In this document: positions 24,779 to 25,244 of the stretch, piece after piece
Layout of the letters: the number at the start of each line of letters is the position of its first letter
Position numbering within the stretch: position 1 is the stretch's first letter
DNA from: Gemmatimonadota bacterium
Lineage (GTDB): Bacteria > Gemmatimonadota > Gemmatimonadetes > Palauibacterales > Palauibacteraceae
DNA: 64,000 nt
Reading direction: 5' to 3'
Assembly (NCBI GenBank): GCA_039584685.1
Contig: JBDGXI010000001.1
Span: 15,239-79,238, forward strand
Position numbers and translations under genes: made by a program
Notes under the pieces: model-generated
The model's database searches: none
Told to the model about the DNA's origin: nothing
Seen by the model: the letters and a program-made list of their open reading frames with translations, nothing else

Positions 24779-24872
24779 GTTACCCAGTGCCGGAGGCAAG
24801 GTCCTCCACCGGTGAACGACGAACACGACTTGGAAGAAAAACCGTTCACAAACCAGAACCGTTGGAGGACAG

Positions 24873-25244
24873 ATGCTCCGCAACACGAAGGGTTTCACTC
24901 TGATCGAGCTGCTGATCGTAGTCGTGATCATCGGCATCCTTGCCGCGATCGCGATTCCGCAGTTCGCCAGCACCAAGGAGAAGGCGTTCGACGCGACAGC
25001 GAAGAGCGACGTGCGCAACGCCATGTCGTCTCAGGAGGCCTATTTCGCCGACGAACAGTCGTATGGTCCGGCAGCCATGGCCACGGGCAGCTTCACCACC
25101 AGCCAGGGCATCGCGATTTCCGCCTCGGCCGCTTCGGCCGGTGGCTACGCGATCACCGCATCGCACGGCAGCTCGGGCAACACCTTCTGGGTGCAGGTCG
25201 GCACGGGCAGCTCGATCGAGGGCAAGGTCCAGAAGTCTCCGTAA
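24873..25244 (+). CDS. pilA: Type IVa major pilin
   Basis: Short leader MLRNTKG|FTLIELLIVVVIIGILAAIAIPQF, E5, strong GGAGG RBS, own sigma54 promoter. Confidence 0.93.
   Translation: MLRNTKGFTLIELLIVVVIIGILAAIAIPQFASTKEKAFDATAKSDVRNAMSSQEAYFADEQSYGPAAMATGSFTTSQGIAISASAASAGGYAITASHGSSGNTFWVQVGTGSSIEGKVQKSP

Follow-up and report, generated by a model that had tools for sequence, protein, structure and literature searches.

A conserved pilA leader in a Gemmatimonadota family, with two predicted and mutually exclusive pairings around the Shine-Dalgarno sequence

Most of what is understood about the control of type IV pilin synthesis concerns transcription (PilS-PilR and sigma54), and we know of almost no molecular genetics in the Gemmatimonadota. 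The major pilin gene in our window (the whole 64,000-nucleotide stretch of Gemmatimonadota DNA analysed here) raises the question of whether the short leader of its mRNA also acts on translation. An original prediction, made from the sequence alone, held that an anti-Shine-Dalgarno (anti-SD) arm in this leader can pair either with the Shine-Dalgarno sequence (SD) or with an upstream GGAGG, and that the choice between them forms a translational switch answering to a protein, a ligand, temperature or folding kinetics.

The pilin locus and its promoter

The features on which the question turns are listed below by window position.

21375-23225: PilS-like kinase
23262..24629, + strand: PilR-type sigma54 enhancer-binding response regulator (Pfam Response_reg, Sigma54_activat, HTH_8)
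24764..24777, + strand: sigma54 -24/-12 promoter GGCATacgggTTGC (GGCAT-N5-TTGC), recognised from the sequence
24792..24796, + strand: 5' GGAGG (anti-anti-SD), recognised from the sequence and kept in 9 genera
24801..24812, + strand: anti-SD arm GUCCUCCACCGG, core CCUCC at 24803-07, complementary to 24859-70 at 11/12 positions
24812..24849, + strand: inner hairpin P2, GUGAACG/CGUUCAC, whose 24-nt loop holds GGAAG (24832-36)
24850..24858, + strand: A-rich stretch AAACCAGAA, predicted to be single-stranded in both states
24859..24870, + strand: SD arm CCGUUGGAGGAC, SD core GGAGG at 24864-68, from sequence and fold
24873..25244, + strand: major type IV pilin gene (ATG at 24873), 123-aa prepilin MLRNTKG/FTLIE..., Pfam N_methyl
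24876-24881, + strand: fourth pairing element CUCCGC, codons 2-3 of the pilin, from predicted folds

The PilR-type regulator adjoins the pilin leader on its upstream side, and a gene for RpoN lies elsewhere in the same genome. The sigma54 element was found in all genera; within the genus 11 of its 16 columns were invariant and its flanks were about 50% identical. A search of 24400-25500 for a sigma70-like promoter found none. From the usual -12 spacing of the sigma54 element we infer that transcription starts at about 24789, and the length from predicted start to AUG was nearly constant among the leaders collected below (76-83 nt, and ~84 nt here; the segments measured also contain ~3 nt 5' of the start and 9 nt of coding sequence).

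Upstream of the sigma54 element, at 24640-24725, we saw TGCA-rich repeats (ATTGCAG, TTTGCAG, TGCAAT and CTGCACGTACTGCACG) that are likely PilR enhancer sites; of this region, an ATCYGC word at ~24703 is all that the genus conserves. Two hairpins lie 3' of the pilin stop (25258-25316), GAUCUUCGA..UUGAAGAUC and then the G+C-rich GGGGCGUGGCGGAU-UCAU-CCGCCGCGCCC, with a weak U run after both. The second of these is probably the pilA terminator, and the entire pilA 3' region has a fold energy of -53 kcal/mol. Directly 3' of pilA, at 25363-27765, is an ORF for an 800-aa multi-pass membrane protein whose sole match is a C-terminal one to YfhO, followed by two more large membrane-protein ORFs; these proteins may serve pilin modification (glycosylation).

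Alternative pairings and their energies

As had been claimed, GTCCTCCACCGG (24801-24812) and CCGTTGGAGGAC (24859-24870) were complementary at 11 of 12 positions, the exception being a single C24809/U24862 mismatch, and the two arms of the inner stem (GTGAACG at 24812-24818 and CGTTCAC at 24843-24849) as well as the upstream GGAGG (24792-24796) were found where the original prediction had placed them. The two alternative pairings both exist, exclude each other and are conserved across 9 genera. The inner stem, said to be enclosed by the long anti-SD:SD helix, is indeed present, but G24812 is common to both stems and the two are not fully compatible; when the long helix is formed the inner stem is down to 5 pairs (24814-18 with 24843-47), and U24813 and G24812 pair with A24858 and C24859, respectively.

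Overlooked in that reading was CUCCGC at 24876-81, whose partner is GC.GGAG of the 5' end in the closed state and the SD in the alternative one. The 5' GGAGG likewise has two possible partners, namely CCUCC at 24803-07 (hairpin P1) or CUCC at 24876-79 (closed state), and with two GGAG(G) and two CUCC words the leader thus has two nested-or-adjacent solutions. In the predicted closed state GC.GGAG of the 5' end pairs with CUCC.GC, GUCCUCCA with UGGAGGAC and CGGU with ACCG, and P2 is shortened; in the local state P1 (GGAGG/CCUCC) and the full P2 form together with a weak hairpin that joins the SD to codons 2-3. The expectation that CCTCC:GGAGG pairing would free the ribosome binding site (RBS) did not hold. 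Because CUCCGC pairs with the SD in that state, at about -7 kcal/mol, the alternative hairpin does not fully free the RBS.

With its flanks (U before, AC after) the SD core matches the internal anti-SD over 8 pairs but the ribosome over only 5, since the 16S tail, as read in one species of the same genus, is canonical (GGAUCACCUCCUUUCU). We rejected the U before GGAGG as an unusual trait in its own right, 20% of a crude ORF set having U there. The short hairpin is uninformative when taken alone, because the bare word GGAGG-N3-8-CCTCC is about as frequent in the genome (83 occurrences) as in the control (79).

The minimum-energy fold of the RNA from 24789 to 24890 (-31.9 kcal/mol) contained the anti-SD:SD helix, and 0 of 200 shuffles folded as well (shuffle mean -22.9 kcal/mol, z = -2.88). 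Ensemble free energies were -34.0 kcal/mol when unconstrained, -24.2 kcal/mol with P1 enforced and -18.3 kcal/mol with the SD and AUG held open; as computed for this genome, the closed state is favoured by ~10 kcal/mol and opening the SD and AUG costs ~16 kcal/mol. Among 1008 ORF starts preceded by GGAGG in this genome (a crude set), pilA had the highest probability of its SD being paired to upstream sequence (0.9999), and by raw duplex energy it ranked only 287th. A search of the pilA mRNA for a long-range partner of 24843-62 found none (-11.5 kcal/mol vs -15.1 ± 2.2 kcal/mol in shuffles).

In the computed folds of the growing transcript, P1 formed first (-7.7 to -9.0 kcal/mol), then P2, and the fold moved to anti-SD:SD once nucleotide 24868 was present. 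A direct-path estimate put the barrier at 7.8 kcal/mol from P1 plus P2 to the closed state and at 24.3 kcal/mol for the way back. Because the computed barrier to the closed state is low, P1 is better seen as a brief intermediate than as a lasting trap, and this upstream hairpin would not last long unless it were held in place.

These energies do not fit the notion of a balanced switch, as the closed state wins by ~10 kcal/mol in this genus and the barrier to it is ~8 kcal/mol; all leaders of the genus were predicted to be closed, with computed opening costs of 13-18 kcal/mol. Temperature fared no better as the controlling input, since the computed opening cost, 21.2 kcal/mol at 4 °C and 12.6 kcal/mol at 55 °C, declines gradually in between with no melting step. 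An RNA thermometer of the ROSE or fourU type was accordingly rejected, the SD helix being G-C rich and its computed opening lacking a melting step.

Distribution, conservation and covariation

A covariance model of the leader (R1) found one copy per genome, located before the pilin gene that follows pilS-pilR. R1 matched 40 of the 113 other family genomes and none of the 31 from the sister family, and the matched leaders come from 9 genera after removal of two weak matches in genus g16 (L072 and L073), which had neither a pilin start nor a promoter and were false. The leader as a whole (95 nt, single-copy and conserved in 40/113 family genomes) is more than a chance arrangement. Leaders of genera that do not have the motif showed no strong SD sequestration, so pilA does not need the motif in general. 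A search of 24000-25600 against Rfam (cmscan, E ≤ 10) matched nothing in the leader; its two hits were weak, lay elsewhere and are put down to chance.

Within the genus a DNA search recovered the 321-nt promoter-leader region in 14 of the 15 other species searched (78-92% identity), and the pairing arms were 89-95% identical compared with ~50% for neighbouring non-coding DNA. Mean pairwise identity was 0.48 upstream of the -24, 0.89 in the -24/-12 element, 0.50 in the spacer to the start site, 0.95 over 24789-24818 (25 of 30 columns invariant), 0.50 (the neutral rate) in the 5' half of the P2 loop, 0.77 in its 3' half and 0.89 over 24843-24872. The P2 arms were essentially invariant, one species having A for C24843. 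Between genera the shape of the P2 region in the middle of the leader differs, the AGAAC(C) motif of 24850-24858 is conserved (alignments A1-A4), and CCTCCACCGGT of the anti-SD arm is kept in 6 genera.

When metagenomes were scanned with the SD and first codons as anchor, 32 contigs came back, 30 of them with a full-length leader and one with a 5'-truncated match. Many were identical to known leaders; they represented the two commonest types, and several contig names point to sediment samples. A separate pattern scan for GGAGG-N3-7-CCTCCACCGGT matched at least 120 loci, and none of the 80 among them that were listed fits R1; nine of these loci, six labelled as Gemmatimonad, were read and contained no pilin leaders; the matches listed are chance ones. 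In the metagenome leader L220 (contig Ga0194013_1004079) CGUCC replaces CCUCC in the anti-SD with the SD unchanged. This change would weaken both helices and may be either a sequencing error or a natural loss-of-lock allele.

A few loci depart from the single-copy pattern. One genome in another genus carries two leaders, L042 (G091:C232) and L064 (G091:C234), one of them nearly identical to the type of this genus and on a short contig; with a contamination figure of 4%, the extra leader is probably a binning contaminant. Second R1-matching loci occurred in two species of the genus. The one in G007 (L070, G007:C78:4300-4397) is a pilin-like start with a GGAGG SD and a leader that has no CCUCC anti-SD, and the one in G004 (G004:C45:10168-10285) is a 118-nt copy, 96% identical to the 3' part of the leader and first codons and cut by the contig end; both may be paralogous pilins without the lock. 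R1 also weakly matched the reverse complement of the leader (12 bits; L015:1578-1668:+ and L016:1578-1668:+), and the GGAGG..CCUCC..GGAGG layout is nearly self-complementary.

Covariation was weak because the paired cores (GGAGG, CCUCC and the SD) hardly vary, being invariant apart from G-U variants. Across the 40 leaders, 85% of cells were paired under the local structure and 77% under the nested one, both well above versions in which the partner was shifted by a few columns. The pairs flanking the anti-SD:SD core did vary, though many of their cells were unpaired: pair 16-125 was GC in 15, UA in 4 and GU in 2 leaders, pair 17-124 was UA in 13, GC in 2, CG in 1 and GU in 1, and pair 23-118 was AU in 29, GU in 5 and GC in 2. 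Extended helices with different spellings were also seen, namely UGCCUCCAC/GUGGAGGCA in L022, CCCUCCAC/GUGGAGGG in L028 and GAUGCCUCC/GGAGGUAUC in L065. When arms were permuted among leaders, matched anti-SD/SD duplexes averaged -15.7 kcal/mol and mismatched ones -14.0 kcal/mol, a difference that reaches significance only when related sequences are treated as independent; when each genus was represented once, matched arms were no better than mismatched ones (p = 0.13).

The anti-SD:SD duplex was weak (-6 to -11 kcal/mol) in genus g14 and in much of g8, and in g8, where CCUCC has decayed, CCCCA, located 7 nt before the SD, forms a second local anti-SD. P1 begins 3 nt past the predicted start site; its loop ranges from 3 to 7 nt across leaders, and G-U pairs occur in it. 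The loop of the GUGA../..UCAC hairpin is 24 nt here and 4-5 nt in g17. A covarying lower stem linking P1 to the 5' end was considered and rejected (-93.2 kcal/mol vs -93.6 ± 9.6 kcal/mol for shuffled flanks). Strand asymmetry gave no support for an RNA reading, as the antisense strand folds as well or better (it was more stable in 32 of the 40 leaders, by a mean difference of 2.1 kcal/mol).

Competing readings of the leader

To the explanation that we prefer, we give about an even chance of being right: the ~84-nt leader of this PilR/sigma54-driven pilin mRNA would be a conserved cis-acting RNA element whose ground state locks the RBS. That the RNA folds in this way in cells, and that the fold affects translation or mRNA stability, are predictions from the models described above. 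Under the proposed sequence of events P1 (GGAGG 24792-96 with CCUCC 24803-07) would fold first during transcription, followed by P2. Once the SD was transcribed, the SD arm (24859-70) would displace the 5' GGAGG from the CCUCC arm, with the unpaired GU and ACCGG flanks as possible toeholds, and the released GC.GGAG of the 5' end would then pair with codons 2-3 (24876-81). The result would be one long interrupted helix in which the SD is buried, the AUG bracketed and the 5' end tied down; this closed form may also shield the 5' end from RNase E/G. In this account, the best supported one, the 5' GGAGG hairpin would serve as a co-transcriptional competitor. Translation could then take place if ribosomes load in the short window before closure, if a ribosome waits on standby at the unpaired A-rich stretch (24850-58), or if some factor holds P1 or opens the helix.

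Several observations speak against such a lock. An opening cost of 13-18 kcal/mol is odd if the gene is, as expected, highly expressed; the antisense strand is at least as stable, and with near-invariant cores covariation cannot prove either helix; two genera have a weak anti-SD:SD pairing; and genera without the motif manage without strong sequestration. The leader as a brake on pilin translation is nonetheless plausible, and the principle is already known.

If instead P1 were the only selected element, it would act as an ompA-type 5' stabiliser against a 5'-end-dependent RNase E/G, with the complementarity to the SD a side effect of the GGAGG/CCUCC spelling. We consider this rather unlikely, although it accounts for a good deal: P1 alone among the helices is retained by RNAalifold across genera and lies 3 nt from the predicted 5' end, its arms change together in g8 (GGAAG/UUUCC, GGAU/AUCC and AGGA/UCCU) as the SD stays GGAGGG, g14 keeps P1 though its SD (GAGGAG) pairs poorly with it, leaders of the sister family have an unrelated hairpin (ACAUAC/GUAUGU) at the same place, and the genome encodes an RNase E/G domain (E = 4e-102), so a 5'-end-dependent nuclease is present. 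Any sequence would serve in a stabiliser, however, yet 8 genera retain GGAGG/CCUCC; in this genus the predicted occupancy of P1 is near 0 once the SD has been made, the SD flanks fit the anti-SD better than the 16S tail, and the supposed lower stem of P1 was no better than shuffled flanks. The palindromes (CCGGAGG..CCTCCaCCGG and GTGAACG-N24-CGTTCAC) could be conserved at the DNA level as repressor operators just downstream of the sigma54 promoter, which we judge very unlikely. Both elements are DNA inverted repeats whose antisense folds as well as the sense strand, their arms are invariant without compensatory change, and P2 spacing is constant in the genus; but the distance between half-sites is not kept between genera (a P1 loop of 3-7 nt, and a GUGA../..UCAC hairpin loop of 24 nt here vs 4-5 nt in g17), G-U pairs occur in P1, and the third partner is the SD itself. 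The variation in loop length and the G-U pairs favour an RNA element over a dimeric DNA operator.

The remaining alternatives place a regulator on the leader. In one, which we regard as unlikely, a protein or small RNA bound to GGA/GGAGG or P1 decides between closed and open states so that pilin translation answers a signal. Family-wide, the predicted dominant state flips between close relatives (L022 vs L071, L063 vs L066, and within g12), and the two states are therefore near equal in energy in much of the family; core helices that are equal would, however, be expected to give near-equal energies without selection. A mid-leader GGA word was present in 33 of 40 leaders vs 20 ± 3 in shuffles, an enrichment counted on related sequences, and in this genus its position within the P2 loop is the same in 14 of 16 leaders, the 3' half of that loop being 77% identical vs 50% for the 5' half. 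Pilin translation control at the SD also has a precedent in Arp of Acinetobacter (PMC12338739). Against this, no candidate factor is known, and neither CsrA (41 genomes searched) nor Hfq (this genome, 91% complete) was found. The specific idea of a CsrA/Rsm leader, with a CsrA dimer on three GGA sites, is close to refuted. The three motifs are there as originally described (24792-94, 24832-34 in the hairpin loop of P2, and one in the SD at 24864), but a six-frame search for CsrA (PF02599) was negative in all 41 genomes of the order, this one included, and the positive controls (Escherichia coli, Bacillus subtilis and Thermotoga maritima) matched. Nor did a ligand-sensing leader find backing, since Rfam gave no match and neither a junction nor a loop core is conserved. 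What stands of the original prediction is a real, conserved leader that is predicted to sequester the SD; regulated switching by it is no more than a possibility.

The leader motif is new and uncatalogued, and it is of a known kind, an SD-sequestering leader with an internal competitor. Translational riboswitch expression platforms such as thiM contain an anti-SD and an anti-anti-SD, and the pilA leader has the same three-part logic of SD, anti-SD and upstream competitor for the anti-SD; unlike riboswitches it has no aptamer, with no Rfam match, a variable middle and no conserved junction. The ompA 5' UTR is the type of 5'-terminal stabiliser hairpins, and here too a hairpin lies a few nucleotides from the predicted 5' end of an envelope-protein mRNA, likely a highly expressed one, in an organism with RNase E/G, but the 3' arm of this hairpin is an exact anti-SD and, in this genus, the predicted folds have the hairpin giving way as soon as the SD has been transcribed. 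In E. coli the rpoS leader folds on itself into an inhibitory stem that covers the RBS and is opened by DsrA, RprA or ArcZ with Hfq (PMC2831331, PMC3783183). The likeness lies in an upstream leader segment that pairs with the RBS and would lower translation, relief coming when another partner takes the upstream arm; the pilA leader differs in having its competing partner (the 5' GGAGG) built in, in its length (~84 nt vs several hundred), and in that no small RNA is known for it and Hfq was not found in the genome. Ribosome standby at structured RBSs is described for MS2 coat and tisB (PMC5934652), and a stable RBS helix likewise adjoins an unpaired stretch here (24850-58) where a 30S subunit could wait; unlike in those systems, a standby role for AAACCAGAA is suggested by its conservation and predicted unpaired state only.

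Translational control of a major pilin was shown only recently, for the trans-acting small RNA Arp of Acinetobacter baumannii, which holds down pilin synthesis post-transcriptionally by pairing across the SD and first codons of pilA (PMC12338739). The closed pilA leader described here would pair across the same two elements, but its partner is in cis where Arp is a separate RNA, and the sequences are unrelated. Should the leader prove to be a two-state riboregulator, set by a protein or small RNA that recognises the GGA/GGAGG hairpins and coupling pilin translation to a cellular signal, which seems to us quite unlikely, that signal could be for example the membrane pilin pool or surface contact, and the leader would point to a new class of post-transcriptional regulator in the Gemmatimonadota, a lineage in which neither CsrA nor Hfq was found in the genomes searched. 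Were it to do no more than stabilise the mRNA or brake translation constantly, it would be ordinary mRNA design. A self-locking RBS leader, as in our preferred reading, would be a second, cis-acting route of pilin translation control, carried by a compact and uncatalogued RNA motif (95 nt, model R1) that is testable in vitro.
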